A program made the translations under genes and the position numbers. This document shows positions 8,623 through 51,951 of a DNA stretch of 64,000 nucleotides, one piece after another. Every line of letters starts with the position of its first letter. Within the stretch, counting starts at the first letter, position 1. The notes below the pieces were generated by a model. The model was given only the letters and a program-made list of their open reading frames with translations, was not told the DNA's origin and made no database searches. The stretch spans positions 69,171-133,170 of the forward strand of contig JAITCH010000011.1 in assembly GCA_031283185.1 (NCBI GenBank), given 5' to 3'. The stretch is from Rickettsiales bacterium. GTDB taxonomy: Bacteria > Pseudomonadota > Alphaproteobacteria > Rs-D84.

Positions 8623-10818
8623 CTACCTCTTCCCAACACTCACCTGATCGCCAAACCCAGAAATAACACTACCCGCAACTTTGCATTGCACAGACTCAAA
8701 GCCTTTATCCACTTGGTTCGCCTTAACGAAATGGTTCGTCAAAAAACCACCCAAAGCACCAACCGCCACAGCACCGGCGGCATCAAACCCAAGCCGTTTC
8801 CAGTTGGTCTCACCATCCGTCTTTTTCAGCCACGACGCTTTGTCTAATTGAAACGCCGATAGATCCGCCAGGGTCTCCACCTTATCCGTAGTGTCGTCTG
8901 TTTTAGTTTGCTGGTCGTCCTTTTTATCAGGTTCCGGCTGACAAGCGGCTATAATTTTATCTAATTTCTTATCCGCCGCACCTTCTTCTTTCTTAAACTT
9001 TTCCAATGTCTTGCAAGCCTTACAGACCTCTACGATATTATCCGGGAATTGATCTTTAACCGCTTTTATAAATTGATCGCCATCCTTTCCACAGGCTTCA
9101 CGGATCTCGTCGTTCTTCCTCTTTTCTTCGACTGCCTGTTCACAAGCCTGTATCGCCTGTCCAGCATCTGAAATAGTATCCGGCAATTTAATATTCAACT
9201 TCAACGCATCTTTATTACAAACATTGCAAAGTTGTTCGTTTCTTAAAGCATCTTCTTCGGTAATTTGCAAAAATATATTTCTGATTTCTTGTTTCCATTC
9301 ACACTTGAATTTCTCAACAACATTAAAACCCGCATTTGGGTCGCATATTTTCTTTATGGCTAAATTGGCCTGCCAATACTTATTACAAAGCGATTTATTC
9401 TCCGCATTATTTTTATCCAAATCAAAAGTCTTTTCACAAATTACATCTTCCGGGATTGTTGCAGTCTCCTCATTAATTTTTTTCTTAAATTGCTCGCCAT
9501 ACTTGTTTGGACAAAACTTAGCATTCACTACGGCATTTTTAATGAGAGTCTTAGTAAGTTCACTAGGACATTCACCTGCACATTCCGCATTATTAACCCG
9601 GCACCCGGCTACCCCCCGGTCTCTCCAATTCCACCATCCGTCTTTCTGGCAAACCAAGTGTTCACCTGTCTTGCAATTCGCCTGTGCCTGTGGCCATTTA
9701 CCTTCATTCTGCGTATCGGCGGAACTGAATGAATAAACAAATTGCAACGACTCATATTTTTTACCAACCTCACAGCAGAACCAGTTTCCACCATCGTCCC
9801 GCACGCAATTTCCCTTATCTTTTTCTAAATCTTCCAACAATTTTTGCTTATCTTTATCGCAAGATGCATTCGCGGTCAGTTCCAAATTTATTCCGCTTAT
9901 ATCCCATTTTTGTGTAGTGATATTGTCTTTTTTATATTTTTTCACACAGTCATCAAATTTTACATAACACCCCGACCATACACCTCCGGCTATGTTAAAC
10001 ATTTTTTCGCAAGTCCGCACCTGATTATCCGGGCAAAGATTTTCGACTTCATAATTATCTTTTTGGTAATAATACTTTACTTTTGCCTCATCTTCTTTGC
10101 CTTCCTTCTTCAATTTAAGCGATCCGTATTTATCTTTCCCAACTTCACAGCAAGCCCAGTCCTTATCCCATGTTTGTGTGCAGCGTCCTTTGAGCCTGTC
10201 TTGAAAAAATTGATTTTCTAGTTTCTCATCATCAGTCTTCTTGCACCACGACCATCCGCCTTTTTCACAAGTCTTCACTTCGCCCTGTTTGCTGCAAACA
10301 TCAGGACTTTTGCCGCCGGTTTTAAAGTAATGAAATGTCGCAAGGGTATTGTATTCTTCGGTAAAATTACAGCAAAAATACTCTTGACCTACCTTATCAC
10401 ATCTCTTTTTATATTTATCCAAATTAAACTGCCTCATTAACGGCAGTTCGCACTTCGACCATTGTCGATTTCTCTGACAAATGCTATTTTCGCCAGAATT
10501 TCCACAATTTATTGGGTCGCCTGTATTCTTAATGGTAATATCTTTTCCATTTATAATCAATTGATCAACATTGCAGCAAAAGATTTTGTTGTTTATCTCT
10601 TTGCAAGTTTCATCGTTCTTATATTTATTTAATAATTCTTCACTAGTAAGTTTTTTGGGAGCAATTATAGAATCTGGCTCGTGACTAACAAAATCCTGTT
10701 TGTGAGTGGCATTCGCCCGCGCCCCACCCGTCCAAACGGACGCGCACAATAGAACCGCAAAAATTATCTTTGCAGTATGTATAGGTGTGTGTGTGTGTAG
10801 GTTTCTGCGGGTTTTCAT
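8623..10818 (-). CDS. Large secreted cysteine- and tryptophan-rich repeat protein (731 aa from Met at 10818): Sec signal peptide, internal CCxVG / GWxWC-type repeats, C-terminal glycine-zipper hydrophobic segment. No recognisable family.
   Basis: Signal peptide MKTRRNLHTHTPIHTAKIIFAVLLCASVWTGGARA. More than 60 Cys, with recurring FCCNV, WACCEVGKDKYGSL, WFCCEVGKKYESL, CEKGGWSWCKK and CQKDGWWNWRDR units. C-terminal GFDAAGAVAVGALGGFL. A (GT)7 tract sits in the signal-peptide codons. Confidence 0.6.
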   Translation of the reverse strand: MKTRRNLHTHTPIHTAKIIFAVLLCASVWTGGARANATHKQDFVSHEPDSIIAPKKLTSEELLNKYKNDETCKEINNKIFCCNVDQLIINGKDITIKNTGDPINCGNSGENSICQRNRQWSKCELPLMRQFNLDKYKKRCDKVGQEYFCCNFTEEYNTLATFHYFKTGGKSPDVCSKQGEVKTCEKGGWSWCKKTDDEKLENQFFQDRLKGRCTQTWDKDWACCEVGKDKYGSLKLKKEGKEDEAKVKYYYQKDNYEVENLCPDNQVRTCEKMFNIAGGVWSGCYVKFDDCVKKYKKDNITTQKWDISGINLELTANASCDKDKQKLLEDLEKDKGNCVRDDGGNWFCCEVGKKYESLQFVYSFSSADTQNEGKWPQAQANCKTGEHLVCQKDGWWNWRDRGVAGCRVNNAECAGECPSELTKTLIKNAVVNAKFCPNKYGEQFKKKINEETATIPEDVICEKTFDLDKNNAENKSLCNKYWQANLAIKKICDPNAGFNVVEKFKCEWKQEIRNIFLQITEEDALRNEQLCNVCNKDALKLNIKLPDTISDAGQAIQACEQAVEEKRKNDEIREACGKDGDQFIKAVKDQFPDNIVEVCKACKTLEKFKKEEGAADKKLDKIIAACQPEPDKKDDQQTKTDDTTDKVETLADLSAFQLDKASWLKKTDGETNWKRLGFDAAGAVAVGALGGFLTNHFVKANQVDKGFESVQCKVAGSVISGFGDQVSVGKR

Positions 10819-10904
10819 AAGGTTTATTATATCACATCCAGTCCTATTTTGGAAAAACAAATCTGCCCCCACGAAACAGCATTTTATCTTGACAAATTAA
10901 TTAT

Positions 10905-14913: not shown

Positions 14914-16509
14914 ATGTTTGAGGTAGGCAGCGATGCGATTTTATCAATTAAAAGCGGAATGAAAAAAAATGATTTCCGCGTGGATTTCGCGCGCATAGTT
15001 TTACTTGTCCTATTCTTTATATTCTCAATCCGTATCGTGCAACTTGGTTTAGAATCGCCAAATGCAAAACGGCGCAGTGTGGGGAATGCCGCTTGGCAGA
15101 CGCTTAGGGCGGATATAGTTGACAGGAATGGCGAATTATTGTCCGGAACTGCGCCTGGATTTTTCATCAAAATCTATCCTGGGCGCATAAAGGATTTGGC
15201 CGCAACGAAAGAGGTTTTAGAAAAAATTTACCCCGGGTTTGACGCGTCATTAGTGGAATCGAAAAAGACCGCGCTTTATCTTAATTATATCCCTCTGGGC
15301 CCGACAGATCCGGCGGTTTTGGCGGCGCGTGAAATTCATCAAAACTGGTTGGATTTGGAAGAGCGGCGCATCCGGCAATATGCGAAAAAGAGAATCTCCG
15401 CGCATATATTGGGCTTTGTCGGCAAGGACGGGGCGGGGTTGGAGGGCGCGGAAAAGTTCTTTGACGCACGGCTGAAATCTTCGGCGGAACCAGTCGCGCT
15501 TTCCATAGATTCGCGGATTCAATCATTGCTTTATCAAGAATTGTCGGATGCTAAAAATAAATATCATGCGAATTTTGCCGCCGGAATTCTAATGGATTCT
15601 ACAACCGGTGAAATTATCGCCGCCGCGCAGGTTCCAGACTTTGATCCGAATGACGCAGGATCGTCCCGCGCAGCCGACAGACAATTTATTCCGATGCGGA
15701 GCGTGTTTGAGATTGGAAGTATTTTCAAGATTTTTAATACCTTGCTCGCGCTTAAAACCGACCCGAATGCAAAAAAGAAATACGATGTGTCAAAGCCCGT
15801 GCAGATTGGCGCGGCAACCATTCACGATAAAAGTTCCCATAGCAAAACCAACTTTATGAATGTAGAAGATATTATGGTGCATTCTTCTAATATAGGTTCG
15901 GCGCGCGTGGCGTTGGCGCAGCCCGCAGGCGTGCAGGCGGAGTTTTTTAGAGAACTCGGACTTTATACGCCGCTGAATGTGGATGGCTTGGGTCGGACGG
16001 CAGTCTGGCCGGAAAGGAAAAATCCTCAGCCGATAGAGGTGGCAAATATGGCGTTCGGCCACGGCATTTCTGTATCAATGATGAATCTAATCGCGGCGGT
16101 AAATGGCGTGGCGAACGGAGGGGTTTTTGTGCAGCCTAGACTTACCAAGGCTATGGCAGGCGAAGGGATTGAAGGTCGGCGCGTGGTATCGGCGGACGCT
16201 TCTAAAACTTTGCGCCGAATGATGCTGCGGGTGTCAGAGGAAACCACAGGCAAGTTAGCGCGAGTCGGCGGGATTGATATAGCTTCAAAAACTGCGACTG
16301 CGGAAAAATTGGTCGGCGGGCGATATTCGGACACAAAGAATCTGAATAGTTTTGTTGCTGTGTTTCCCGTGGAATATCCGCGATATATTTTATTGATTAC
16401 GATTGACGAGCCGCAAGCGATAGATGGCGGCGGGCGGACATCTGCGTTTAATGCGGTGCCGGTTGCTGGGCGTGTTTTAGATGTCGCCGTCCCCTTGTTG
16501 ATGAAATGA
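14914..16509 (+). CDS. ftsI: Peptidoglycan D,D-transpeptidase FtsI (PBP3)
   Basis: SxxK (SIFK), SSN (HSSNIG) and KT(A)T motifs; PBP dimerisation domain; 531 aa. Confidence 0.8.
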   Translation: MFEVGSDAILSIKSGMKKNDFRVDFARIVLLVLFFIFSIRIVQLGLESPNAKRRSVGNAAWQTLRADIVDRNGELLSGTAPGFFIKIYPGRIKDLAATKEVLEKIYPGFDASLVESKKTALYLNYIPLGPTDPAVLAAREIHQNWLDLEERRIRQYAKKRISAHILGFVGKDGAGLEGAEKFFDARLKSSAEPVALSIDSRIQSLLYQELSDAKNKYHANFAAGILMDSTTGEIIAAAQVPDFDPNDAGSSRAADRQFIPMRSVFEIGSIFKIFNTLLALKTDPNAKKKYDVSKPVQIGAATIHDKSSHSKTNFMNVEDIMVHSSNIGSARVALAQPAGVQAEFFRELGLYTPLNVDGLGRTAVWPERKNPQPIEVANMAFGHGISVSMMNLIAAVNGVANGGVFVQPRLTKAMAGEGIEGRRVVSADASKTLRRMMLRVSEETTGKLARVGGIDIASKTATAEKLVGGRYSDTKNLNSFVAVFPVEYPRYILLITIDEPQAIDGGGRTSAFNAVPVAGRVLDVAVPLLMK

Positions 16510-19204: not shown

Positions 19205-19773
19205 TCTATCCCTAATGCTTTGCGAACCTCTTCTGCTCCGATTTTTTTTGCTGCTGATGTAATGATAACATCTGCGCGCGCGGCAGGTCTTTTCTGTATC
19301 TCCGCCTTGACCGATCCCAAAACTTCTTTCAATTCGGACGAATTTAATTTATCTGTTTTCGTTAATATGATTTGATAATTCGTCCCGGTGCGATCAAACG
19401 CATCCATAACTTCTATATCGCTTTGCATAAAGCCGCGGCGCGAATCTATCAACAGCATTACCGCAACCAAGTTCGGTCGTCCGCCTATATATTCCGCAAC
19501 CATTTCCTGCCACGCGCGCACATCAGATTTTGACGCAACGCTATATCCATATCCCGGAAGATCCGCGAGTGTTCGCCCTCCGAACTCGAAAAGATTAATC
19601 GTCTGTGTTCGGCCGGGAGTATTGGATGCGCGCGCCAAATGCGAAAAGCCGGTCGCAAGATTTATAAGCGTTGATTTGCCGACATTAGACCGCCCAAGGA
19701 AGGCGTATTCGGGATTATTTAATACGGGCAATTCGCCCGCGTCAGTCCAACTGCCAATGAATTCTGGTTTCAT
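19201..19773 (-). CDS. engB: Ribosome biogenesis GTPase YihA/EngB
   Basis: G1 GRSNVGKSTLIN, 190 aa. Confidence 0.85.
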   Translation of the reverse strand: MKPEFIGSWTDAGELPVLNNPEYAFLGRSNVGKSTLINLATGFSHLARASNTPGRTQTINLFEFGGRTLADLPGYGYSVASKSDVRAWQEMVAEYIGGRPNLVAVMLLIDSRRGFMQSDIEVMDAFDRTGTNYQIILTKTDKLNSSELKEVLGSVKAEIQKRPAARADVIITSAAKKIGAEEVRKALGIE

Positions 19774-20582
19774 TTTTTTGCTCCCAACGCCAAGTCGTAA
19801 GCGTCTTTTTTAGATATGCCGGATCGGGCGGAGATTTCTTCGGCCGCATCTTTGGTTTTTATATTTCGTTTTGCAACATCTTCTACGATTTCTTTTATTG
19901 CCTCATCGGATAATGCGGCGCGCGGCGCAGGCTCTATCAGCAAGACCATTTCTCCGCGACACTCGAATTCTGGAAAGTCAGCGGGGTATCCGACAACGAC
20001 TTCTTCATATATTTTGGTTAATTCCCGCGCGACTGCGATTTTCCGTTCCGGCATAATTTTCGCCAATGCGGCGATGGTATCCATAATGCGATTCGGCGAT
20101 TCGTAATAAATGATTGTTATGGGAATGCGCGCTGCAATGCTAAGTTCTTTATCCCGCGCCATATCTTTTGCTGGCAGAAACCCCAGGAATGAAAATCGGT
20201 CGGTTGGAAATCCAGACAGCACCAATGCGGATACCAATGCGGATGCCCCCGGCACAACGGATATTAAAATTTTGCGCGCCCGCGCTTCGCGCACCAACTT
20301 AAATCCCGGGTCGGATACCAATGGCATTCCGCTATCGGATATTAATGCGACAGCCATTCCGCCATCTATTTTATCAATTATATCGGGAATGGACTGACCT
20401 TCATTATGTTCGTGAAAAGCGGATAATTTGGTCTTAATATCAAAATTAGCGCATAATTTGCCGGAAACCCGCGTATCTTCGCATAAAATCAGGTCGGCGT
20501 CCCGTAATGTCTGGACTGCCCGCGAAGACATATCGGATAGATTTCCGATTGGCGTGCCGACTATGTAAAGTCCCGCTTGCAT
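19770..20582 (-). CDS. rsmI: 16S rRNA (cytidine1402-2'-O)-methyltransferase RsmI
   Basis: Tetrapyrrole-methylase fold; LYIVGTPIGNLSD ... LILCEDTR. Confidence 0.8.
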   Translation of the reverse strand: MQAGLYIVGTPIGNLSDMSSRAVQTLRDADLILCEDTRVSGKLCANFDIKTKLSAFHEHNEGQSIPDIIDKIDGGMAVALISDSGMPLVSDPGFKLVREARARKILISVVPGASALVSALVLSGFPTDRFSFLGFLPAKDMARDKELSIAARIPITIIYYESPNRIMDTIAALAKIMPERKIAVARELTKIYEEVVVGYPADFPEFECRGEMVLLIEPAPRAALSDEAIKEIVEDVAKRNIKTKDAAEEISARSGISKKDAYDLALGAKK

Positions 20583-20629
20583 TTCGCGTCCTTTTCTTTT
20601 ATCTTAAACCAACCCAACAGGAATCTCAA

Positions 20630-22396
20630 ATGAAAATTACTAAAATATCAGTATTAATGCTTGGTTTGCTTGCCGCTTGCGGCGGACAGCAGGAACTATA
20701 TAAACCGATGCCGGTATCATATGATGTCCCGGCCGACCTGCTTTACGGCACATACCGCGGGTCGGATGCCGAGGGCGGCTATTCTGGACGCGGGAAAATC
20801 GCCGCAGTTCTGCCTTTATCCGGGAAATTCGCATCCGCCGGAACAGGCATACAAAAAGCCATAGAAATGGCCGCGCTTAAATCCAAGGACGCGCCGGTTA
20901 TAGAATTCTTTGATTCCGGCGCGGATAAAGAAGGCGCGGTCAAAGACGCGTTAAACTCCGGCTCGGACATAATCATAGGTCCCGTATTCGCTGACGAGGC
21001 TATGATTCTACGCGGGCGGAATTATAATAGAATCCCCGCGCTTACATTTACTTCGGATGCCGAAGCATTGGGATCTGGCGTTTATTCCATCGGAATTATG
21101 CCGGGACAGCAAGCAGAACGCATAGTTAAATACGCCGCCGCTATGGGAAAAAATAATATGCTTATCCTTGCGCCGGATTCCAAACAGGGCAGAGTATTGG
21201 CGACAGCATCTGTTGCAGCCGCCGATGTTTATGGCGTGAACATAGTCGGGCTTTATTACCACGATGAAAATGGAAGTCCAGATAAACTCCGCGAACTTGC
21301 AAAAAAAGTTTCCCTTAACAAAGCTCGGAACGCCGCCAATAACGAGGCAAAAAGCATAATCTCCGATATTCTGTCCGAAGGCAAAATCAGCGGATCAGAA
21401 CGAGATATGCTGGAAACGGAATTGAAAGCCCGCACACAGGAAGATTCGCTTGGGGCGTTGCCATATGATTCCGTGCTGATATTGTCTTCCGGCAATGATG
21501 TGAAGAATATCGCCTCGTTCCTGCGCTATTATGATGTGAAGGCAAATGATGTGCAGTTCTTTGGCACGGCTGCGTGGGATTCGGACGATACGCGGCACGA
21601 TATGATCTTGGTCGGCGGCGCATTCCCCGGAATGCCCGTCAATATGCCCGAATTTGCAAATAGTTATACCGCATTGGACGGGCGCGCTCCGTTTCGTATG
21701 GCCAGTATGGGATATGACGCGTTTATGATCGCATCCAAGGTGCTGGGACGCGGACAGAAAGTAGAAGATGTCTTACGCGACCCGGCGGGCTTTAAGGGCG
21801 CGGATGGCATAATCCGATTCGGCGAAAACGGGGAATCGGAACGGGGACTTGCAATATATAAATTAAACGGCTTGTCGAAACCGATGGTATCCGACCTGCC
21901 GCCCAGCAGTTTTATGAAGCCGATATATAAGGTGTCCAAAGTCCCGTTCTTGGCGGGGAATTTGGTGGACTTGCCAACGATGGATATAGATCCGATTGAT
22001 TATATAAATGTGCCGGAACGATTAAAGGGTAAATGGCGGCGCAGCCATAATTCGGCGACAGCGGGCGCGAAAATGACCGGGACGAATCTTATACATGCGG
22101 AAGATATGTCCGGCGAAGTAATTGTTGAAGAAGATTTTTCAGGCTCTGCAATGCCTGAAAAAATAGAACAACAATTATTGGATAATGTGGAAATTGTGGA
22201 AAAGCCCAAGGCGGCAAATAAGAAAAAGCCCGCGCCGGTTATAAAGAAAAAGGCAGATGCTGCTAAACCCGCCGCGCCAGTTGCATTGAGATCTGCGGCT
22301 GCGGCGGCAAAAAAGCCGGAAACCAAGAAGGGGAAGACCAAGACGCGGCCATTACCCCCAAAGAACGACGACTACATAGATGTCGATCCGATGTAA
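20630..22396 (+). CDS. LpoA-like / periplasmic-binding-protein (type 6) family lipoprotein with a C-terminal Lys/Ala/Pro-rich tail
   Basis: Lipobox LLAAC|GG; GKIAAVLPLSGKFASAGTGIQKAIEMA ... ILAPDSKQGR; last ~90 aa KPKAANKKKPAPVIKKKADAAKPAAPV...KKPETKKGKTKTRPLPP. Confidence 0.5.
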   Translation: MKITKISVLMLGLLAACGGQQELYKPMPVSYDVPADLLYGTYRGSDAEGGYSGRGKIAAVLPLSGKFASAGTGIQKAIEMAALKSKDAPVIEFFDSGADKEGAVKDALNSGSDIIIGPVFADEAMILRGRNYNRIPALTFTSDAEALGSGVYSIGIMPGQQAERIVKYAAAMGKNNMLILAPDSKQGRVLATASVAAADVYGVNIVGLYYHDENGSPDKLRELAKKVSLNKARNAANNEAKSIISDILSEGKISGSERDMLETELKARTQEDSLGALPYDSVLILSSGNDVKNIASFLRYYDVKANDVQFFGTAAWDSDDTRHDMILVGGAFPGMPVNMPEFANSYTALDGRAPFRMASMGYDAFMIASKVLGRGQKVEDVLRDPAGFKGADGIIRFGENGESERGLAIYKLNGLSKPMVSDLPPSSFMKPIYKVSKVPFLAGNLVDLPTMDIDPIDYINVPERLKGKWRRSHNSATAGAKMTGTNLIHAEDMSGEVIVEEDFSGSAMPEKIEQQLLDNVEIVEKPKAANKKKPAPVIKKKADAAKPAAPVALRSAAAAAKKPETKKGKTKTRPLPPKNDDYIDVDPM

Positions 22397-22398
22397 GG

Positions 22399-22658
22399 CC
22401 AAAAAACATAAGGTGCATTTTTGAGATATTTATTGGATGGCCTATCAAGCCGTTGCGATGTCGCTGGATTTTTTGAGATTATTATTATAATTAATATCGT
22501 GCAAAAAACATTAACGAGGTCGCGTTTGTTAGGATAGAACGGATAATAACCAGGAACGGCAGGGCGCGATGGGCTATCCGCCCATAAGTTTCCCTGCCGT
22601 TCCGAAGTTAGTAGCCGTTATAGACAACAAACGAAAAACCGAGGTTATGTTTTTTGGC
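22399..22658. repeat. Two family B elements in tandem: a core-less flank-only copy followed by a full inverted copy
   Basis: aaaaaacataaggtgcattttt...gttgcgatgtcgctggatttttt, then the reverse complement of the 16507-16664 element. Confidence 0.65.
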
Positions 22659-24339
22659 ATTTAGGCAATAAAGAATTAATAGCTGGGCGCAAGTTGGATG
22701 CGTTGAATAAATAACTCCCGCTGACCAACTCATCCGCCCCGGCGCGCCAGCATAACTGCGCCGTCTCTTCATTTATCCCGCCATCCATTATTATCTGAAA
22801 TTTCAATCTGCCCTTGGCGCGGACTTTACAAAGCCTTCGCACCTTATCCAAAACCTCTATCATAAACTGCTGCCCGCCGATTCCCGGCACCACCGACATC
22901 ACAATAATTCTATCAAGGTGTTTTATTATCGGCGCAATCGTATCAATTTCATCTTCCGGGTTTAGAGCAATGCCGCATTTGACCCCCGCCTGCTTTATAT
23001 GGGCAAGGTTCTGGGCAAGGTTTCGAGACCCGGTGATGAGGACAATTGAATCCGCCCCCGCCCGGATGAATTTCGGAATTTCAGGCGCAGGATCGCCCGC
23101 CATTAAATGCGCCGAAAATTTCAATGCGGAATCACGGGTTATATTTGCGGCATCCTTTGCCGAACCTGTTTTTTGCGGCGTCCATTTTCCATCCATAAAG
23201 TCATAATGGATTTCGCGCACACCGGCTTCCTCGAATTGGCGGAGAAGACTTCGGGTCATTCTACCAAAAGAAAGCGAGCTGGGCTGGATGGGACATTTCG
23301 GACTGGCCAAGCGATATATAATTCTTCTTAAAAACATAACGATGCGCGAACGGGATGGTTGCTGCGAAGTGCTGCGGCAAGCGGCGGCGATGGCGGTATC
23401 CGCTGCGGCGGCGATGGCGGTGCCATCCAAAGTTTCGGATATGATTTTGGACGCGACTTTGACATTGCTGCCGCCGCCGAAGAGAATGATTTTTTTAGGA
23501 ATTTCACCTGGAAATTTAGCCGCCAATTCGTCCGAAATTTTCCCGGCCAAAATCTTGAAAAAGCCGGAGATTTCGTCCTTTATATCTGCGGCATTTACAG
23601 ACCCGATTGTATCAAATTGGTCTTCCAATTTAAGGGGGGAAACGGCGGCCTGGATTTTCAATTTTTCCGCATCTAAAAAACTGATGTCAAACCTGTCCGC
23701 GATCTGTTTGGTCAAGTCCATTTGTCCGATGCCCAGTTCATCCATATGGACTATGCCGGCGTCATTTCCGACCGCAATGCGGGTTGCGGATCCGCCGAGA
23801 TGAATGAGTAATGCTTCGCCTGAAAATTTATACATAACCTGCATCATATCTATAAAGCCGACTGGTTCCAGATAAGATGCCTCCGCCGTTCGGGCGAGGC
23901 ATTCGGTTTCTTGGCGCGGGCAAAGGATGGCGAAAAAATCGCCCCTAAGATCTGCTGTTCTGATGCCGACGGGCGAGTCTACATTTTGTCCATCCGCATC
24001 CCAGCGAATAGGGACAAGATGAATGGTTGAGAGTTCCGGGTTTTGGAGTTCTGGTAATGCCGCGATCATTTTGCGGACATCCGATTCCGTTATTTTCTTG
24101 GGGTATGGAAAGGCGAGGCTGTTAGACACTATGCCCGAAGTTTGTCCGCCGAAATATCCCGCGATAAAGGCGCGTTTGAATCGGCTGCGGGTTTCGGCCT
24201 CCAATTCGTCCAAGACTGCGTTTAATGCGTCCCCGGGATTGGCTGAAATATCTTTTGTTTTGATGATTATTTTATCGTTAAAGGATGCGGCTGCCTTGAC
24301 CCGGTTTCTTCCGAAATATATGACGATTGCATCGCTCAT
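22645..24339 (-). CDS. Single 564-aa reading frame: truncated FtsA-like actin-family domain (residues 1 to ~335) fused without a stop to a complete ribulose-phosphate 3-epimerase
   Basis: FtsA blocks LLIHLGGSATRIAVGNDAGIVHMDELGIGQMDLTKQIA and KKIILFGGGSNVKVASKII. The first phosphate loop is degenerate (VIYFGRNR) and the FtsA C-terminus is missing. After an Ala-rich linker the Rpe blocks follow: IHYDFMDG, HLMAG, MSVVPGIGGQ, IIMDGGIN, AGADELVSGS. Confidence 0.6.
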   Translation of the reverse strand: MSDAIVIYFGRNRVKAAASFNDKIIIKTKDISANPGDALNAVLDELEAETRSRFKRAFIAGYFGGQTSGIVSNSLAFPYPKKITESDVRKMIAALPELQNPELSTIHLVPIRWDADGQNVDSPVGIRTADLRGDFFAILCPRQETECLARTAEASYLEPVGFIDMMQVMYKFSGEALLIHLGGSATRIAVGNDAGIVHMDELGIGQMDLTKQIADRFDISFLDAEKLKIQAAVSPLKLEDQFDTIGSVNAADIKDEISGFFKILAGKISDELAAKFPGEIPKKIILFGGGSNVKVASKIISETLDGTAIAAAADTAIAAACRSTSQQPSRSRIVMFLRRIIYRLASPKCPIQPSSLSFGRMTRSLLRQFEEAGVREIHYDFMDGKWTPQKTGSAKDAANITRDSALKFSAHLMAGDPAPEIPKFIRAGADSIVLITGSRNLAQNLAHIKQAGVKCGIALNPEDEIDTIAPIIKHLDRIIVMSVVPGIGGQQFMIEVLDKVRRLCKVRAKGRLKFQIIMDGGINEETAQLCWRAGADELVSGSYLFNASNLRPAINSLLPKCQKT

Positions 24340-25022
24340 TGTGAAACCAGGGTTCTCGCGCTGTCGCGCAGATCAAGTGTCTTTAATTTCTTGCCAAGTA
24401 TTTTATCTGATTTTTGGAGCGCGGATAAACGCGCCAGCGATTTATCCAAATCTTCGCCAAGCAGGACGCGCCCCCCGCCCTTTATATTGATGTTATATCT
24501 GCGGGTTTCTATCAATTCCACGCTGCGGATAAAGGGGTTCAGGTCTGGGAATTTAGCGAATGCACGGATTATGATTTCAGCATCGGTCGGGCGAAGGCCT
24601 TCAAATAACAGGCCGTTGAATTTTTTAACAGGGATGCGGACGATTGCGCCATTGCTTGCCATCGGATATATGTCTCGTCCGTCTGTCCAAAATGCGATGG
24701 GTTTGAGTTCTTCGATGAGTAATACTATGCGTCCGTTAGGGAATCGCTTGGCGCGGGCGCGGGATATTTCTGGCAATGATATAGCGGCGGACGCAAGGGT
24801 ATTAAGGTCTATGTCGTAAACGGAAGAGCCTTTTTTTATACCGAGTTTACCGACTACTTTATCACTGGTTATGGTTTTTGGGGCGGGCATTATCAGGATG
24901 GATCGGATTGGGGCGGCACCTGTAAGTCCTGCGGAAATCATAATACCGCGGATACAGGCATATCCTGCCGCGATAAGGGTAGCGATGGCGCAAAGCCATA
25001 AAACGGGTTTATTGCTGGTCAT
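24336..25022 (-). CDS. ftsQ: Cell-division protein FtsQ (POTRA domain)
   Basis: N-terminal TM LWLCAIATLIAAGYACI; POTRA-like region; ATGA overlap with the downstream ftsA-like gene. Confidence 0.6.
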   Translation of the reverse strand: MTSNKPVLWLCAIATLIAAGYACIRGIMISAGLTGAAPIRSILIMPAPKTITSDKVVGKLGIKKGSSVYDIDLNTLASAAISLPEISRARAKRFPNGRIVLLIEELKPIAFWTDGRDIYPMASNGAIVRIPVKKFNGLLFEGLRPTDAEIIIRAFAKFPDLNPFIRSVELIETRRYNINIKGGGRVLLGEDLDKSLARLSALQKSDKILGKKLKTLDLRDSARTLVSQ

Positions 25023-25093
25023 ATAAGGATTATATCATAAAGAGCGCAAAGTATGAAGTGGAGAGTGGAAAGTGGAGAGTGGAAATGTGAAAT

Positions 25094-25150
25094 ATGAGTC
25101 TAACCACCCCGGCGGCTTTGCCGCCACCTCGCCACCATTGGCGGGGAATT
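25094..25150. repeat. GC-rich hairpin repeat, family C (accaccccggcggctttgccgccacc...ttggcggggaatt); second copy at 33311-33360
   Basis: Near-identical 50-nt palindromic sequence at two loci. Confidence 0.5.
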
Positions 25151-25154
25151 GTCT

Positions 25155-26075
25155 TTATAGTTTGGAATAAAGTTCTATGTATTCAGATGCGGTTTTATTT
25201 ATGTCTAAAAACTTCTTCGCAAACTTGGCATTATCCATTGCAATTTGTGATTTTTCCCCGGTGGATAAATCAAGCGCGGCAGAAAACGCATCACGGAATT
25301 CTTCCACATCATCCGGGTCAATTTCCCAGTTCGTTGGAATTTCCGGAGCAAGCCCCCGCTTCATCGCAATAACAGGCGTCCCAAGGCTAAGCGCGGCCGG
25401 CATATATTTGTGATCATATAAAGACAGCACAAAGAATGCAGAGCGCAGCAAACTTGGCATATCCGGCTCTACCCCGATGAATATGATTTTATCCCCGAGA
25501 CCGGCTTTACGGGCATCTTTGGTAAGTTTCTTGCCGCTGGCTGGGGAAAGTTCGCCAACCATTGCGATTATGAAATCCTGGCGATCTAAATCTTCGGCCA
25601 TATCAATAATATCCGGCAGGCTGTCTTTGACGGGGCCGAGTGCCACAATCATCTTCCTGTCGTGCGGGATATTGTATTTTTGGAATATGTCGGTTTGGCG
25701 GCGGGCAGGTATGGCGTCGGGATTGAATATGGCAAGGTTTAGCCCTGTGCGGATGACTGATTTGATCCCCCAACCATTCCCGATGAATTTGGAAGTCGCA
25801 ATAAGTTTTGCGCCGCGAATCCAGGACTTTTGCCGCCATTTGGCCATAAAATGGTTGTCGGGTTCTTCGGACAGGGTAATGACGCGCGGGTTTTTAAGGC
25901 GGTGCGTGGCCTGCGCGGCGCGCAGCCCAAAGCAATGGACGATGGCGTTTTTGTCGGTTATTTTATCGCCTGTGCGAAGAGAGTCCACGGCGACACCCAT
26001 AACGGATAATGATTTAGCCAACGGCGCGACTGAACGCGATAAAGGATTGTCTGAGACGAGTATTACTTTTTTCAT
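25155..26075 (-). CDS. Glycosyltransferase (GT-B fold, GT4-like C-terminal half)
   Basis: 306 aa; C-terminal ...IGVEPDMPSLLRSAFFVLSLYDHKYMPAALSLGTPVIAMKRG... resembles the GT1/GT4 nucleotide-sugar-binding region. Confidence 0.4.
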   Translation of the reverse strand: MKKVILVSDNPLSRSVAPLAKSLSVMGVAVDSLRTGDKITDKNAIVHCFGLRAAQATHRLKNPRVITLSEEPDNHFMAKWRQKSWIRGAKLIATSKFIGNGWGIKSVIRTGLNLAIFNPDAIPARRQTDIFQKYNIPHDRKMIVALGPVKDSLPDIIDMAEDLDRQDFIIAMVGELSPASGKKLTKDARKAGLGDKIIFIGVEPDMPSLLRSAFFVLSLYDHKYMPAALSLGTPVIAMKRGLAPEIPTNWEIDPDDVEEFRDAFSAALDLSTGEKSQIAMDNAKFAKKFLDINKTASEYIELYSKL

Positions 26076-26148
26076 TTTTTGTTTTATGCCTTTCTATTCA
26101 TTATCATTATAGATAAATAATTTCCAAAAATCCAGTGGTATAAATAAA

Positions 26149-26277
26149 AATTCCCCTCCGATGGAGGGGTGCCCGAAGGGCGGGGTGGTTTAACCACATA
26201 TTACCACAATACTTGCCAAAATGTGGCTAAACCACCTCCCCCCACTTCGTGGGGGACTCCTCCACAGGAGGAGAATT
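26149..26277. mobile_element. RPE-like palindromic element, family A copy 4
   Basis: aattcccctccgatggaggggtgcccgaagggcggggtgg...gggggactcctccacaggaggagaatt. Confidence 0.7.
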
Positions 26278-26282
26278 TTTCT

Positions 26283-26663
26283 TTATGAAGCCCTTAATAA
26301 ATAGCCCTTCTTAAACATACATTTCCGATAGACGCCTACCGAATTGGACGACATATTAGATGGGGCGGATACCAAAACCCGCTGACCCACCCCTTGGAAT
26401 TCATTTGACTGGAACGACACCCATAATCCGTCCCATTCGGGCAAAGAACTGATTTGTCCGGGCATAAGGAGTTTGGCAAGTTTAGATCTCGGTTCATTCA
26501 TATCCCGGTTTATCCCCAAACATTCCTTATGGTCGCTGGTAAAGCGGTCTTGGGTAACAGATTCGTTTTCCCAATTCATAATGGTGGCGTTATCCAATCG
26601 CCCCCGGCTGGTGGAAGAGCAAGCGGCAAGAATAACCAGTAAAGATATTGCGTATTTATTCAT
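26283..26663 (-). CDS. Hypothetical lipoprotein (126 aa)
   Basis: Signal and lipobox LLVILAAC|SS; no known domain. Confidence 0.4.
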   Translation of the reverse strand: MNKYAISLLVILAACSSTSRGRLDNATIMNWENESVTQDRFTSDHKECLGINRDMNEPRSKLAKLLMPGQISSLPEWDGLWVSFQSNEFQGVGQRVLVSAPSNMSSNSVGVYRKCMFKKGYLLRAS

Positions 26664-26783: not shown

Positions 26784-27101
26784 ATGGATTCTGCGGGAAG
26801 ATTTGAGTTTTTAGCGGATTTATACGAACGCACGGACAGGGCGGCGGATGCCGTTTGCGCGGCCAAGGGGCTTGACCGCGATAATTATGCCCCGCGCGTC
26901 TTCGTTTATGACCTGCTGGAATTGGCCGTGCGTGCCGGTGAATTGGCGGCGTCATCCAATTCAGGAATCAAAACGCGCCTGAATCCGCTGGTTAAAAAAT
27001 TAGAAAAAGTAAAGGGCGAGACGACCCCGTCTGCAAAGCCCATTCATAAAATGACTATGGAAGAGTTCCTAAAACTCATCGCTCCGGGGGAGAATAAATG
27101 A
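26784..27101 (+). CDS. Hypothetical small protein (105 aa), translationally coupled (ATGA) to the downstream lipoprotein gene
   Basis: ORF preceded by an RBS gaggtagaggg; no recognisable motif. Confidence 0.35.
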   Translation: MDSAGRFEFLADLYERTDRAADAVCAAKGLDRDNYAPRVFVYDLLELAVRAGELAASSNSGIKTRLNPLVKKLEKVKGETTPSAKPIHKMTMEEFLKLIAPGENK

Positions 27102-28399
27102 AAAATTGGGCATTATATTTCGCGGCTTTGGTCGCCTTGTCAGCCTGCAATAATCAAGCGGTGGATTTCGTAGAGGTTCGCACGACCAATAACTATGTCG
27201 TGGACAGCCGCAGCGTTCCCATATTCCCGAAAAAGGCCGCGCTTACCACAGATACAGCGCGTAGATTCTCCATAGAACTGCCGAAACGCTGCCATGTGGA
27301 TTGGGATAACCAAAGCGTTTTATCAATTTTGCCGTTCGAGGAAATAAATATCTATCGCGCCGATTTGGGCGATACTATGCCGAACTTGGCCGTCAAAGAT
27401 TATACTTTCGAGAAGATGAAAACCGAAGACGCATTGGCCGGTCTCTTGGACGGCACAGGCATTTCAGTTGTTTTGGATTCCGTCATAGAAACAAAAATTT
27501 CGGGCGAGATAAAGTCCGGCAGTTTGGCTGACTCGGTAGAACTGCTGACGCGGATGGGCAAGACATATTATAGTTATGACGCGTTCGCCAAGGAACTTCA
27601 TTTATTCTCCCGCACCAAATGGGTTATGAAAATGCCCAAAGACCAGCAGATTATAATCGCGTTGATTGACGCAATGCGCGGAGTTGAAAAACGCAATCTA
27701 ATAGTCAACTGGGAAGACAAGACATTAATGTTCGAGGGCGATTTCACAACAGAGAAATCCGTCCGCCGCCTTATATCCGAACTGGGATCTAAGAAGAACT
27801 TGATTGCATTTGATATGGACATATATCGCATTTATCCGCGGCAGAATGATGCCGTTGCATGGATGGATATTCTTCCTGCGTTCGGAACGAACAATATAAA
27901 GATGTCGGTGCCGGGCGTGGTCGGCAGAATGCTTGTCGTATCGCCCGAAATAAACACCAAGACCTTGCAGTCGTTTATGGCGCGGAATTCCAGTGCCGTC
28001 CTTATATCGCAGGGAACATTCATAATTCCAAACGGCTGGAATTCAAGATTTGATATTGGGCAATGCTCCAAGGAAGATCGCTTGGAAACGGAATTGATAA
28101 TCGGCGCAAGGGCGAAATTCGTGGACTTTGCCGGACTGGGGAAAAAGAAAGTTGATTCAGAAATCGTGCTTTATACCAAGCGCGGCGAATTGTCTTCATT
28201 CAAGGTTCCATCAACCCTCGGCGACAATTATGTCGTAATCGGCATACCAACCCATTCGTTTGTGTCTGAACCCGAAACCCTGGTCTCTCCGTTTGCAGAA
28301 CTGGTGGTATTCATCAGCCCGCGCGTTATAGAGGTCTTGCAGCCGGAAGATAATTTACAGGACTTGCCGGGTGATATAGTCCGCGCGATGTCGGATTAA
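27098..28399 (+). CDS. Hypothetical outer-membrane lipoprotein with a secretin-like C-terminus (433 aa)
   Basis: Lipobox LVALSAC|NN; C-terminal ...YVVIGIPTHSFVSEPETLVSPFAELVVFISPRVIEV resembles the secretin C-terminal ...LGG...vlfITPrIV signature; immediately upstream of lolCDE. Confidence 0.35.
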   Translation: MKNWALYFAALVALSACNNQAVDFVEVRTTNNYVVDSRSVPIFPKKAALTTDTARRFSIELPKRCHVDWDNQSVLSILPFEEINIYRADLGDTMPNLAVKDYTFEKMKTEDALAGLLDGTGISVVLDSVIETKISGEIKSGSLADSVELLTRMGKTYYSYDAFAKELHLFSRTKWVMKMPKDQQIIIALIDAMRGVEKRNLIVNWEDKTLMFEGDFTTEKSVRRLISELGSKKNLIAFDMDIYRIYPRQNDAVAWMDILPAFGTNNIKMSVPGVVGRMLVVSPEINTKTLQSFMARNSSAVLISQGTFIIPNGWNSRFDIGQCSKEDRLETELIIGARAKFVDFAGLGKKKVDSEIVLYTKRGELSSFKVPSTLGDNYVVIGIPTHSFVSEPETLVSPFAELVVFISPRVIEVLQPEDNLQDLPGDIVRAMSD

Positions 28400-38315: not shown

Positions 38316-39083
38316 ATGCTTCCCAGCGTTTATGCACCAAAGGATTTTAAGAGATTGCGTCAGGCGGGGGCGATAGTCGCCCGGGCATTGGAATATATCG
38401 GGCAGTTTGTGAAGCCCGGCGTGTCCACGGCGGAATTGGATGAGATAATTGCAAAATTCTTAAAGGAAAATGATGCCAGGTCAAGTTGCCTTGGATATAA
38501 GGGTTTTCCGAAATCTGTATGCACTTCGATCAATGATGTTATAGTCCACGGGATTCCGAGCGACAAGGATATATTGAAAGAAGGCGACATTATTAATATA
38601 GATTTAACGGCGGAGTTTAAGGGCTTTCATGCGGATTCTTCACGGATGTTTGCCGCAGGGCGCATCTCGGACAATGCAAAGAAAATCAATCAAACGGCGT
38701 TGGATGCCTTGATGACATCTATATCTGCTTGCGAACCGGGCGTGCCTCTGTCGGAAATCGGCAGGATCTGCGAAGGCCTGGCCAAGGCGCGGGGATTCTC
38801 AGTGTCCAAGGACTTTGTGGGGCACGGCATAGGCAAAGTTATGCACGACGAGCCGCAGATCTATCACTTTTATGATAAGAAAATGGATTCCGTTATTATG
38901 TGCCCGGGATTGGTCTTTACCATAGAGCCGATGTTATGCGAGCATTCCGCAGCGATGAAAATTGATGCGGATGGCTGGACTGCACGGACAAAGGACGGGG
39001 GATTATCCGCGCAATGGGAACATACAATCGGTATAACCGAAGACGGCTGCGTTATCTTTACAGAATTGCCGGACGAGGGATAA
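38316..39083 (+). CDS. map: Type I methionine aminopeptidase
   Basis: Metal-ligand blocks ...CLGYKGFPKSVCTSINDVIVHGIP, DIINIDLTAEFKGFHAD, VGHGIG, EPM; 255 aa. Confidence 0.85.
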   Translation: MLPSVYAPKDFKRLRQAGAIVARALEYIGQFVKPGVSTAELDEIIAKFLKENDARSSCLGYKGFPKSVCTSINDVIVHGIPSDKDILKEGDIINIDLTAEFKGFHADSSRMFAAGRISDNAKKINQTALDALMTSISACEPGVPLSEIGRICEGLAKARGFSVSKDFVGHGIGKVMHDEPQIYHFYDKKMDSVIMCPGLVFTIEPMLCEHSAAMKIDADGWTARTKDGGLSAQWEHTIGITEDGCVIFTELPDEG

Positions 39084-39088
39084 TAAAA

Positions 39089-39763
39089 ATGAGCGGATGG
39101 AGAGAGGGGCATAGAAAACGGATTTTTGATAAATTTGATAAGGGATTGGATATGTCGCCTTATGAAATTTTAGAGATAATTTTATGTTATTGTATTCCGC
39201 GGATGGATGTGCGGGGAACGGCTTCGCAATTGGTGAAAAAATATGGCAGTCCGTTGGCTGCTTGTATTCAATCTGAAAAATCATTGTTGGAAAACGAGGG
39301 AATTGGAATTTCTTCTGCGCGGTTGTTGCGGGCAATAGGCGGGCTTTATGAAGATAGTTTTGCGATTAATATGAAGGCAGAGCCGATATATCATAATATC
39401 CAGATTCTTTATGATTATTGTAGGATTAAGATGGCGGCGTTGGAAGAAGAGCGGGTTTTAGTGCTTTATTTGGACGCGAATATGAAGTTGATAAAGTCGG
39501 AAGAGCATACCAAAGGATCGGCGGCGGAATCTGCGTTGTATAAGGATAAAATTGCGAAGAACGCATTGGTTATGGGCGCAAGGAATGTGGTGGTTGTGCA
39601 TAATCATCCTGCTGGCGGGGATTTTTCGATTGATGATTATAATGTTTCGTGCGCGCTTAGGGACGCGCTGGGAACGATTGATGTGAAGTTGTTTGATCAT
39701 CTGCTGGTGAGCGATGGCAGAGTTCTATCTGCGAAAGAAAAATGGCCCGAATTGGGCGTATGA
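39089..39763 (+). CDS. radC: RadC-family JAB-domain protein (UPF0758)
   Basis: JAMM motif VHNHPAGG; N-terminal HhH-like region. Confidence 0.75.
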   Translation: MSGWREGHRKRIFDKFDKGLDMSPYEILEIILCYCIPRMDVRGTASQLVKKYGSPLAACIQSEKSLLENEGIGISSARLLRAIGGLYEDSFAINMKAEPIYHNIQILYDYCRIKMAALEEERVLVLYLDANMKLIKSEEHTKGSAAESALYKDKIAKNALVMGARNVVVVHNHPAGGDFSIDDYNVSCALRDALGTIDVKLFDHLLVSDGRVLSAKEKWPELGV

Positions 39764-41970: not shown

Positions 41971-42858
41971 TTATATTATCTCATAATTATCCGGGTCGGA
42001 AAATAACATCCTTAACGCCAGATTATTCAACGCGTGCGAGCCTTTATAACTCTCCACCCTGCCTTGCAACACACCGCCAGCCAACGCAAAATCCCCCAGC
42101 ATATCCAGCACCTTATGCCGCGCAAATTCATTCTTCCATCTCAGTCCCCAAGGCTTCGGATTCGCCACTCTATCCCCATCCAATGCAATAACATTCTCTT
42201 CATTCGCACCCCGCGCCATACCGCGCTTTTTCAACGCATCCCACTCCGCCAAGTTCCCAAAAGTCCTTGCCCTTGCCACATCTTTCTCAAAATCCTTAAT
42301 ATCTTTCAGGGCAAATTTCTGGTCGCCAATGATTTTATTATTATAGACCAACCGCGCTGAAAATTCCGCCTTTCGCGCTGGCGAAATCTTTACATATCCA
42401 TCCCTGCCCCCGCGCCGAAACAGCCCCAAAATCCGCATCAATAACGGCATTTTCAAGCGCAAATCCCTTGCCCGCGCCACAATCTCTTTTTTAACAATTA
42501 TCGTTTTGGGCTTTCTGCCCGCCACCACCGGCTTTAACTTTTTATAAAACTCCTCGGCGCAGCCATCCATAATCGGAATCTCCGCCCCGTCCGTTTCCAC
42601 CACCGCATTATCAATCCCCAAAGCATAAAAAGCCGCCATCAAATGCTCTATCGTCTGAACCCGCGCCTTGCCATCCTCCAACGAAGTGCTTCGCATCTCC
42701 GTCCCGACTACATTATCAAACCGCGCCAAAACACTTTTGCCCAAATCGGAACGCGTAAAGACCACCCCGCCATTTCCCGGCCGTAGAGTCATATTAAACG
42801 CCTCGCCCGAATGCAATCCCACGCCGCGAAATTTGACTATATTTTTGATGCCAGCCAT
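41971..42858 (-). CDS. lpxC: UDP-3-O-acyl-N-acetylglucosamine deacetylase
   Basis: N-terminal IVKFRGVGLHSGEAFNMTLRP and later LpxC Zn-site blocks; 295 aa. Confidence 0.8.
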   Translation of the reverse strand: MAGIKNIVKFRGVGLHSGEAFNMTLRPGNGGVVFTRSDLGKSVLARFDNVVGTEMRSTSLEDGKARVQTIEHLMAAFYALGIDNAVVETDGAEIPIMDGCAEEFYKKLKPVVAGRKPKTIIVKKEIVARARDLRLKMPLLMRILGLFRRGGRDGYVKISPARKAEFSARLVYNNKIIGDQKFALKDIKDFEKDVARARTFGNLAEWDALKKRGMARGANEENVIALDGDRVANPKPWGLRWKNEFARHKVLDMLGDFALAGGVLQGRVESYKGSHALNNLALRMLFSDPDNYEII

Positions 42859-43748: not shown

Positions 43749-44455
43749 ATCTGTCCCTTAAATTCGCCCTGCGTTAACGCATCGTATCCAAATTCCGCGT
43801 CCAATTTATGCAGCTGATCTACCATCGTTTTTTCCAGATCTTCACGAATCAAATTCCACTCGTTTTCGGTCGCATTCCGCGGCACAAAAACCGGATTTCC
43901 CAAATTAAATTTTATCCGACCAAACGGCAACGCCAGCATATATTTATCCCAATTTTTATTAAACCTGGCGCGCGAACAAGAATAGCATATCGGAATAATC
44001 GGCACCCCTGTCATTTTGGCAAAATATAAAATCCCGTCTTTTAATTGCATCCGGGGACCCCGCGGACCATCCGGCGTCATCATCAAAACCTTGCCCTTTT
44101 TAAGCACGGAAAGCCCCCCTCTTAACACCGACAAACTATCCCTTTTACTTGACCCCTTTATCGGTTTTAATCCGAACAATCTTTGCAACTTTGCCATCAA
44201 TCTTCCATCTTCGTGAATGGATGAAACCGCGTATCCATCCAGGCCGTAAAGATATACCAGCGGGGATAAGACAAAACTTCTCCCGTGCCAAAAAGCAAAT
44301 ACCGCCGGCTTGCCTTTCAGGTTTTTCAAGATCTCTTCGCCCTCTATTTTTCGTCTGCTGCTAAGGAATATGAACCATATGACGAAGGCCGCAAAAACGG
44401 CAATCATCCATTGCACCAGCGCATTCTTGAAAATAGATTTCATTATTTTCTTCAT
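43745..44455 (-). CDS. DUF374 / lysophospholipid-acyltransferase-like membrane protein (commonly linked to lpxK-kdtA)
   Basis: N-terminal TM, FAFWHGR and MTPDGPRGP blocks; 236 aa. Confidence 0.5.
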   Translation of the reverse strand: MKKIMKSIFKNALVQWMIAVFAAFVIWFIFLSSRRKIEGEEILKNLKGKPAVFAFWHGRSFVLSPLVYLYGLDGYAVSSIHEDGRLMAKLQRLFGLKPIKGSSKRDSLSVLRGGLSVLKKGKVLMMTPDGPRGPRMQLKDGILYFAKMTGVPIIPICYSCSRARFNKNWDKYMLALPFGRIKFNLGNPVFVPRNATENEWNLIREDLEKTMVDQLHKLDAEFGYDALTQGEFKGQI

Positions 44456-51930: not shown

Positions 51931-51951
51931 AGAATTTATTAGAGGGGGTGT

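Follow-up and report, generated by a model that had tools for sequence, protein, structure and literature searches.

The window analysed here, a stretch of 64,000 nucleotides from contig JAITCH010000011.1 of assembly GCA_031283185.1, contains an open reading frame (ORF) in which the coding sequence of the division protein FtsA runs in frame into that of the metabolic enzyme ribulose-phosphate 3-epimerase (Rpe). This ORF, at 22645-24339 on the minus strand, most probably encodes a single bifunctional polypeptide derived from formerly separate, adjacent ftsA and rpe genes. The fusion is not a peculiarity of one genome; in fact, it has become fixed throughout a large clade of Alphaproteobacteria from the gut that comprises Candidatus Enterousia, related uncultured lineages and the window's own lineage. 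It is thus firmer and more widely spread than was apparent from the sequence alone, and less dramatic than the idea, put forward in an earlier note on this DNA, that FtsA is being lost. The fusion ORF and its parts, all on the minus strand and numbered by residues of the encoded protein, are the following.

22645..24339 (-), ftsA::rpe fusion ORF, uninterrupted, 564 amino acids plus stop (NCBI MDR2685957.1)
23365..24339 (-), predicted FtsA-type actin-fold core, residues 1-325, with subdomains 1A, 1C/SHS2, 2A and 2B; predicted local distance difference test (pLDDT) of its blocks mostly 85-96
24295..24324 (-), degenerate phosphate-1 loop, residues 6-15, VIYFGRNRVK, in which Y8 replaces the conserved Asp
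23917..24135 (-), subdomain 1C, the SHS2 insert typical of FtsA and PilM, residues ~69-141, from the PF02491 match and the modelled strands and helices
23779..23811 (-), phosphate-2 loop, residues 177-187, LLIHLGGSATR, in which H180 replaces the conserved Asp
23347..23364 (-), short linker, residues 326-331 (RSTSQQ), predicted to be disordered, with pLDDT below 50 at 327-331
23305..23346 (-), basic amphipathic helix, residues 332-345 (PSRSRIVMFLRRII, continuing into YRLA), helix H332-345 of the model
22669..23292 (-), ribulose-5-phosphate 3-epimerase TIM barrel, residues 350-557, from PF00834, NF004076 and the Foldseek match to 2fli

MDR2685957.1 is a protein of a metagenome-assembled genome (MAG) labelled Rickettsiales bacterium, and its sole annotation is "ribulose-phosphate 3-epimerase", the only one that all the other named family members carry as well. 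The single open frame described at first, with an FtsA-like N-terminus followed by a full Rpe, was recovered as 564 amino acids without a stop, and stops are present in both alternative frames across the junction. The start of the fusion likewise overlaps the stop codon of ftsQ as ATGA, as had been noted, and on this sequence the fusion is translationally coupled to ftsQ. Profile searches recognize both halves. In Pfam, residues 178-305 match FtsA (PF14450) with 36.2 bits, above the cutoff of 31.8, while residues 76-137 match SHS2_FTSA (PF02491) with 23.9 bits, slightly under the cutoff of 25.4; a weak match to PilM_2 (19.5 bits) is also found. Residues 362-545 match Ribul_P_3_epim (PF00834) with 139.5 bits (cutoff 21.1, E 1.2e-40), and the protein passes the NCBIfam rpe subfamily model NF004076 (175.4 bits, cutoff 165) and falls under the cutoff of the strict Rpe equivalog TIGR01163 (156.8 bits, cutoff 212.6).

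The fusion is present in independent data. The Logan assembly of SRR14710906 holds a contig of 3,564 bp that is 100% identical to positions 22628-26191 of the window, and a second protein of 563 amino acids, P0002, which comes from another sequencing run (locus L001), has the same two-domain architecture and 47% identity over 99% of its length. The neighbours of P0002 also match those of the window: LolD, LolC/E, three unknown ORFs, a GT1 glycosyltransferase, FtsQ and then the fusion. Among the explanations first offered there was a frameshift or stop missed between two separate genes, ftsA and rpe; such an artefact of assembly or sequencing could be suspected in a sequence from a metagenome-assembled genome, the more so as conservation within the protein is lowest at the junction. 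Against this suspicion stand the identical contig from a second assembler, the uninterrupted in-frame junction of 82 loci, which belong to different genomes and metagenomes and stem from many studies and assemblers, and the stops in the other two junction frames, so that an artefact is excluded and effectively refuted. The independent assembly and the 82 intact loci support instead a genuine chimeric protein made of an FtsA core and Rpe.

The extent of the family became visible only with sensitive searches. When the FtsA part by itself was used in a word-indexed protein search, it matched nothing but its own sequence, and the same kind of search with an 18-sequence alignment matched only P0001 and P0002; the family was reached solely by an exhaustive HMMER search, whose query was a profile built from the FtsA part and nothing else. 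At the top of this search stand about 20 clusters (50% identity) of 552-623 residues, all of which are FtsA-Rpe fusions or fragments of them at contig ends, and ordinary FtsA proteins of 400-420 residues start only at E ~1e-15. The loci were then scanned with an alignment containing the junction, for which one of 4 sequences worked and one of 10 sequences of the FtsA part was too diverse. In these scans the gene was found in 35 species-level GTDB genomes and on 56 JGI metagenome contigs. From all loci, 82 complete single ORFs were extracted, corresponding to 76 distinct proteins of 563-608 amino acids with identities reaching down to 22%; the comparison with related genomes that the earlier note had suggested has thus recovered the same fusion many times. 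No split version of the fusion occurs among the extracted loci, and the three partial ones end at contig ends.

The carriers are, according to their GTDB record titles, Candidatus Enterousia species and uncultured Alphaproteobacteria from the guts of yak, goat, sheep, roe deer, horse, termites and Hadza humans. Enterousia has been placed in the uncultured order Rs-D84, with genomes mostly below 1 Mb and a partner-dependent lifestyle; MreB, RodA, MrdA and most genes of the non-oxidative pentose-phosphate pathway have been reported for these bacteria, and the report makes no mention of FtsZ, FtsA or cell division (PMC12306168). The lineage of the window, with about 48% guanine plus cytosine (GC), lipid A genes, VirB4 and an AddB-like nuclease, forms with P0002, P0003 and P0004 a separate subclade, which has upstream synteny in common with Enterousia.

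An AlphaFold2 model built from the 18-sequence family alignment has a mean pLDDT of 89.4. In this model the N-terminal 325 residues form a compact but complete FtsA-type core, including subdomain 1C. The best PDB matches of the core in Foldseek are FtsA structures, those of S. aureus, Vibrio, Xenorhabdus, E. coli and T. maritima, with E ~2e-19, a template modelling score (TM-score) on the target of 0.64-0.70 and about 350-380 aligned columns; for 3wt0/3wqu/7q6i/4a2a the TM-score is 0.67-0.70. In S. aureus, Vibrio and T. maritima the FtsA crystal cores have 370-380 residues, and the alignment covers them with about 365 columns. FtsA also comes first when the family profile is searched against the PDB (E 1e-24), and the sequences that come nearest to the family from outside are FtsA proteins of Alphaproteobacteria. 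PilM, the other protein with a 1C subdomain, matches the structure less well (5eou, E 9e-15, TM-score 0.57); an identity of the N-terminal domain as PilM or MreB was considered and rejected on weaker structural and profile matches and on the wrong gene context. These comparisons change the picture drawn at first, in which the FtsA sequence stopped before the C-terminal subdomain and the membrane-targeting helix and went on through an Ala-rich linker. The AlphaFold model and Foldseek show the core as complete, an amphipathic helix follows it in the model, and the supposed linker (TAIAAAADTAIAAAC) corresponds to the last strand and helix of the core (E307-310, H315-325).

The nucleotide site of this core is altered in the window. 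The degeneracy of the first phosphate loop (VIYFGRN, with Y8), seen at once in the sequence, is real, and the Asp of the second loop is replaced too, by H180. Across the family the phosphate-1 Asp is kept in 46 of the 53 aligned members, with Tyr only in the window, P0002 (L001), P0003 and P0004; the phosphate-2 Asp is kept in 44 of the 53, and the window's subclade has His or Asn. The variants VIY.GR and IHLG/INLG are restricted to this subclade, and in the alignment the degenerate loops are therefore a local derived state of the subclade and not a property of the fusion in general. The window protein keeps the Gly, Thr and GGG adenosine motifs. Because the aspartates that coordinate Mg/ATP are replaced in both loops, nucleotide binding by the FtsA module of this subclade is probably weak or absent, and the module probably serves as a scaffold. 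Of the proposal that FtsA is "being lost or remodelled" here, loss finds no support and remodelling does, in the sense that the helix lies internally, before a barrel of ~24 kDa, and that the loop aspartates are gone in the subclade.

Between the core and the barrel, the helix at residues 332-345 (SRIVMFLRRIIYRLA) has a hydrophobic moment of 0.78, equal to the value computed for the membrane-targeting sequence of E. coli FtsA and within the top 1-2% of windows in the fusion protein. The character of this segment is shared by the family: in 74 members the 30-residue stretch that precedes the first Rpe strand contains about 10 hydrophobic residues and averages a net charge of +9.6, where other stretches of this length average -0.4, and the median of the maximum moment in the pre-Rpe segment is 0.76. 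The helix thus looks like a putative membrane binder, occupying in the model the place of FtsA's C-terminal membrane-targeting helix, here in an internal position.

The C-terminal module is a complete Rpe with all catalytic blocks, as first described. Its model superposes on S. pyogenes Rpe (2fli) with a target TM-score of 0.92, a root mean square deviation of 1.3 Å and 37% identity, and matches many other Rpe structures. In Rpe enzymes, metal binding and catalysis are carried out by a His-x-Asp pair, a His and an Asp, together with a methionine cushion and phosphate loops; in the window the corresponding motifs are H378, D380, M382, H411, M413, M481, PGIGGQ, D519 and S541-G-S (SGS), and H378, D380, H411 and D519 are kept in 51-52 of the 53 aligned members. 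The family has, furthermore, an Rpe signature of its own, in which the usual DG.FVPN is replaced by DGFYV in the Enterousia clade and by DGKWTPQ in the window, together with a CW.AGAD motif. A different Rpe is found in locus L068 (OFGH01001779.1), where, at fusion residues ~410-597, a canonical-type Rpe (FVPS, NPGFGGQ) follows the HVDVMDG motif and has 45% identity to E. coli Rpe, against ~31-34% for other members. Either recombination has naturally exchanged the Rpe domain at this locus, or the metagenome contig is a chimera.

The origin of the fusion can be approached through its closest named unfused relative, P0024, an alphaproteobacterial FtsA of 420 amino acids (MCT4552437.1) from the AT-rich MAG of locus L100, where the genes lie as follows.

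L100 6001-7954, ftsQ-ftsA-rpe on one strand, with a 16-nt gap containing GGAGG between ftsA and rpe

The ftsA gene of L100 ends in an amphipathic helix followed by the stop (KILAKVKKWIDDNF-TAA), and its rpe, of 224 amino acids, starts with MFKKRKQKIQISPS / MFKKRKQKIQISPSIFAAD. Unusually for an Rpe, the stand-alone enzyme of L100 has an N-terminus rich in Lys and Arg (MFKKRKQK). In the fusions the junction presents, in this order, an amphipathic helix, a Lys/Arg-rich stretch and the motif P-I-x-P-S. Since it resembles the end of the L100 ftsA joined to the start of its rpe, the loss of a stop codon and spacer is the simplest origin, and the comparison of sequences suggests that the fusion arose through loss of the ftsA stop codon together with a short spacer.

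Both halves of the fusion are under strong purifying selection and are functional in the Enterousia clade. In pairs from this clade with an unsaturated synonymous divergence (dS) of 0.3-0.6, the FtsA part has a ratio of nonsynonymous to synonymous substitution rates (dN/dS) of 0.03-0.11 and the Rpe part one of 0.04-0.12, while the ratio of the linker is 0.08-0.24. Averaged over pairs of family members, identity amounts to 57% in Rpe, 39% in FtsA and 26% in the linker. The window's subclade has no close pairs for dN/dS, and the argument there consists of frames that stay open at 36-48% identity and of the confident fold.

Several points weigh against a bifunctional FtsA-Rpe protein and temper our confidence in it. 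The FtsA part of the window scores 44.7 bits with the NCBIfam FtsA equivalog TIGR01174, far under the cutoff of 175.85, and as its phosphate-loop aspartates are lost, canonical ATP-dependent FtsA behaviour cannot be assumed. The model has a predicted template modelling score (pTM) of just 0.58, so that the arrangement of the domains is modelled with low confidence, and the junction helix, with a pLDDT of ~60, is itself a low-confidence model; moreover, the proteins of another subclade (P0016, P0017 and P0021) have a shorter linker without a clear amphipathic helix. Two AT-rich lineages keep an Rpe domain without its catalytic residues, which hints at something more than catalysis. Finally, the identity of L100 to the fusions is 24% for FtsA and 32% for Rpe, which shows that the gene order exists, and not direct ancestry.

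Some of these points would fit a scenario in which the FtsA half, in the window's subclade, is a decaying or non-functional remnant, kept for the promoter, the translational coupling and the membrane tether that it provides to Rpe. Y8 and H180 replace both phosphate-loop aspartates solely in this subclade, the FtsA scores are weak with TIGR01174 and, for SHS2, under the cutoff, and the FtsA part of the window averages 24.5% identity to the rest of the family. A neutral remnant would be expected, at such divergence, to gather stops and indels; on the contrary, four lineages of the subclade, at the 36-48% identity given above, keep an open FtsA frame of the same length, about 120 positions of the FtsA part are invariant between the window and P0002, the region is modelled as FtsA-like across the whole core at the high block pLDDT listed above, and the ATGA coupling to ftsQ is retained. 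We therefore consider a remnant very unlikely, and the related proposal of a deletion that joined a decaying ftsA to rpe is not supported, in view of the confident fold of the full core, the four lineages without stops and the low dN/dS of the FtsA part in the Enterousia clade.

It could also be asked whether one ORF yields two proteins, either by internal initiation near M336 or by cleavage in the linker region 326-349, which would free Rpe and leave a normal, C-terminally anchored FtsA in place of one product of roughly 62 kDa. M336 of the window is indeed encoded by an in-frame ATG, 15 codons ahead of the first Rpe strand, and L001 has such an ATG at a distance of 13 codons; the disorder of the linker at 327-331 would also suit cleavage. 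On the other hand, no Shine-Dalgarno-like motif precedes any internal candidate start, and the candidate starts are unconserved, with L012 and L015 having no ATG, GTG or TTG in the 30 codons before Rpe. Two products from this ORF are, in our judgement, very improbable, slightly more so than a decayed FtsA half; internal translation initiation as a general mechanism was rejected, there being no conserved start and no Shine-Dalgarno motif.

The lineages with a catalytically dead Rpe bear on a further explanation, according to which the fusion was selected for division and the Rpe barrel is a part of the divisome, either oligomerising FtsA at the membrane or sensing pentose phosphates to gate division. 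Rpe enzymes are dimers or hexamers. Two very AT-rich members, P0046 (gene GC 20%) and P0020, keep the full-length domain without the Rpe catalytic residues, in at least 10 assemblies. In the P0046 lineage (L042/L043/L102/L103) the first His, its Asp, the Asp of DGG and the PG.GGQ loop are lost, and the FtsA loops as well; the gene is nevertheless an intact ORF of 589 amino acids, present in at least 10 assemblies on contigs of up to 198 kb. Among three variants, the dead Rpe domain of P0046 has 7 synonymous and 7 nonsynonymous substitutions where 80% nonsynonymous would be expected (P = 0.011), and the FtsA part has 13 synonymous and 19 nonsynonymous (P = 0.003). This deficit gives weak evidence for a non-catalytic role of the barrel, for example in oligomerising FtsA, which we regard as doubtful. 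A functional coupling would also fit the persistence of the fusion, unreverted in 82 loci at identities down to 22%, and the family's own Rpe signature (DGFYV for DG.FVPN; CW.AGAD). However, the catalytic set is kept in 51-52 of 53 members and Rpe is the best-conserved region, as for an ordinary working enzyme; the adjacent, unfused ftsA and rpe of L100 offer a simple neutral route; the dead domain offers 14 substitutions for the selection test; and oligomerisation and sensing are hypothetical roles. Selection of the fusion for division is thus unlikely.

A bifunctional polypeptide that arose by a neutral join of neighbouring genes remains the preferred explanation. From its fold, motifs, selection, conservation and gene order we infer a protein whose FtsA module would be attached to the inner membrane face by the internal amphipathic and polybasic segment and would act in the divisome beside FtsQ. 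The Rpe module would be kept at the membrane and would go on converting ribulose-5-phosphate and xylulose-5-phosphate into each other for a residual non-oxidative pentose-phosphate pathway.

The genes on either side of the fusion in the window are listed here.

24336..25022 (-), ftsQ, 228 amino acids (POTRA_1 and FtsQ_DivIB_C), whose stop overlaps the fusion start as ATGA
25155..26075 (-), group-1 glycosyltransferase (GT1) upstream of ftsQ (PF00534, 39.7 bits)
20507..22396 (+), convergent gene for an LpoA-like periplasmic-binding lipoprotein, which passes PF13458 (Peripla_BP_6, 39.7 bits) and reaches 27.0 bits against a cutoff of 28.8 with PF04348 (LppC)

The adjacency of ftsQ and the fusion recurs in L001, L009, L040 and L042, and in L100 ftsQ is next to the unfused ftsA. 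The order GT1-ftsQ-fusion is the same in L001 and L040, and a terminator-like site lies upstream of GT1 at 26169-26153; GT1 is probably the first gene of a GT1-ftsQ-ftsA::rpe unit in the window's subclade. Downstream of the fusion, the place where ftsZ would be expected is taken by the LpoA-like gene on the other strand, in agreement with the first reading of the sequence. The listed 5' end of this gene overlaps the end of rsmI (19770-20582, -), and from the sequence its true start is probably M42 (~20630), ahead of the lipobox and lipoprotein signal (MKITKISVLMLGLLAAC).

The absence of ftsZ from the locus was confirmed in the window and extends to every related locus. A tblastn search of the 64 kb with E. 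coli FtsZ, a query verified as genuine FtsZ by Pfam, found no ftsZ, and 99 related loci, 1.43 Mb in total, showed no FtsZ-like sequence up to 10 kb away from the fusion, each locus covering about 2% of a genome of ~0.9 Mb. Nor does ftsZ follow ftsA in the unfused relative L100. An inverted ftsZ-lpxC block near the lpxC of relatives was considered and rejected, as lpxK, and not ftsZ, precedes lpxC. Being common to the related loci and to the unfused relative, the absence of ftsZ is by itself no sign of a cell without FtsZ; to our knowledge every studied alphaproteobacterium has FtsZ, and the gene is therefore expected elsewhere in these genomes. The extreme version, in which reduced-genome bacteria without FtsZ divide by a machinery based on FtsQ and FtsA-Rpe, is extremely improbable. 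The window encodes, in addition, an FtsI-like penicillin-binding protein (PBP; 14914-16509), MreC, PBP2 and RodA. The mreC-PBP2 (mrdA)-rodA cluster lies at 48623-53133 with no mreB ORF of at least 180 amino acids directly upstream, and the lowest GC of the window (0.37-0.42) is at 47.8-50 kb.

Some other features of the region can be recorded. Between lolC/E and ftsQ/GT1 the window, L001, L040 and L042 carry three ORFs without Pfam match, which in the window are at 27098-28399 (+), 26784-27101 (+) and 26283-26663 (-) and encode 433, 105 and 126 amino acids; at the same place L009 retains the large ORF and has different small ones. Two of the three have lipobox-like N-termini (ALSAC, ILAAC), and from their sequences these ORFs appear to be conserved unknown lipoproteins adjoining the Lol system. 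A type IV secretion ATPase of VirB4/TrbE type (45394-47802 (-)) adjoins an unknown ORF of 200 amino acids, with DUF374, lpxK and lpxC downstream (block 41971-44455 (-)); in L040 the block of TsaE, DUF374, LpxK and LpxC near VirB4 sits close to the fusion gene. At 8623-10872 (-), beside a low-GC stretch (0.40 at 10-12 kb), there is an ORF of 749 amino acids with a GTG start and no Pfam match. The ORFs for a methionine aminopeptidase (38316-39083) and a RadC-like protein (39014-39763) overlap by 70 nt as listed, and the start of the latter probably lies further downstream.

A literature search for an FtsA-Rpe fusion, including in Alphaproteobacteria, found no paper describing one. The sequences themselves are already public, but as Rpe only, and what is new is that a divisome protein is fused to a metabolic enzyme throughout a clade; the kind of system is not new. 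Under the present annotation these genomes seem to lack ftsA, and the gene enters metabolic reconstructions as Rpe only, so that the annotation needs correction. The family is a natural test of how far FtsA tolerates a C-terminal cargo and of whether its membrane helix can work internally. Furthermore, the lineages with a dead Rpe and the subclade without the ATP-loop aspartates provide a test of whether a metabolic fold can be co-opted into division in shrinking genomes. Even if the fusion were merely a neutral join of neighbours, it would still be a clean, datable marker for a poorly known clade.

In comparison with known systems, the N-terminal module is closest to canonical FtsA, the main membrane anchor of the division ring, in which an amphipathic helix is normally the very C-terminus. 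Like the proteins of E. coli, T. maritima and S. aureus (PDB 7q6d, 4a2a, 3wqu), it has an actin-like fold with 1C in place of 1B, the 2B motif GQ.DLT..IA..F.I....AE.LK, a gene directly after ftsQ and, in the model, a succession of core, flexible linker and amphipathic basic helix. Unlike them, its core is ~60 residues shorter, its linker has 6 residues, against roughly 20 in E. coli FtsA, no ftsZ lies downstream, and the amphipathic helix is internal and followed by an enzyme of 215 residues. PilM shares the FtsA-like fold with 1C, but the fusion gene adjoins ftsQ and not pilNOPQ. With stand-alone Rpe (S. pyogenes 2fli; E. coli Rpe) the fusion shares the (beta/alpha)8 barrel, the His/Asp/His/Asp set, the methionine cushion and the PG.GGQ and GS loops; it differs in the missing start codon of its own, the position behind FtsA, the replaced DG.FVPN loop and the CW.AGAD motif. 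L100 resembles the fusions in gene order and strand, in the lack of ftsZ after ftsA, in the amphipathic end of FtsA and in the Lys/Arg-rich start of Rpe, whereas it has two genes, set apart by a stop codon and the 16 nt with their GGAGG ribosome-binding site, a canonical DIGT-type FtsA (PF14450, 97.6 bits) and an Rpe with the VPN loop. Metabolic enzymes or folds tied to the Z-ring machinery are known in UgtP of B. subtilis, OpgH of E. coli and GdhZ/KidO of Caulobacter; these are separate proteins that bind FtsZ, whereas in the family described here the enzyme is covalently joined to FtsA.

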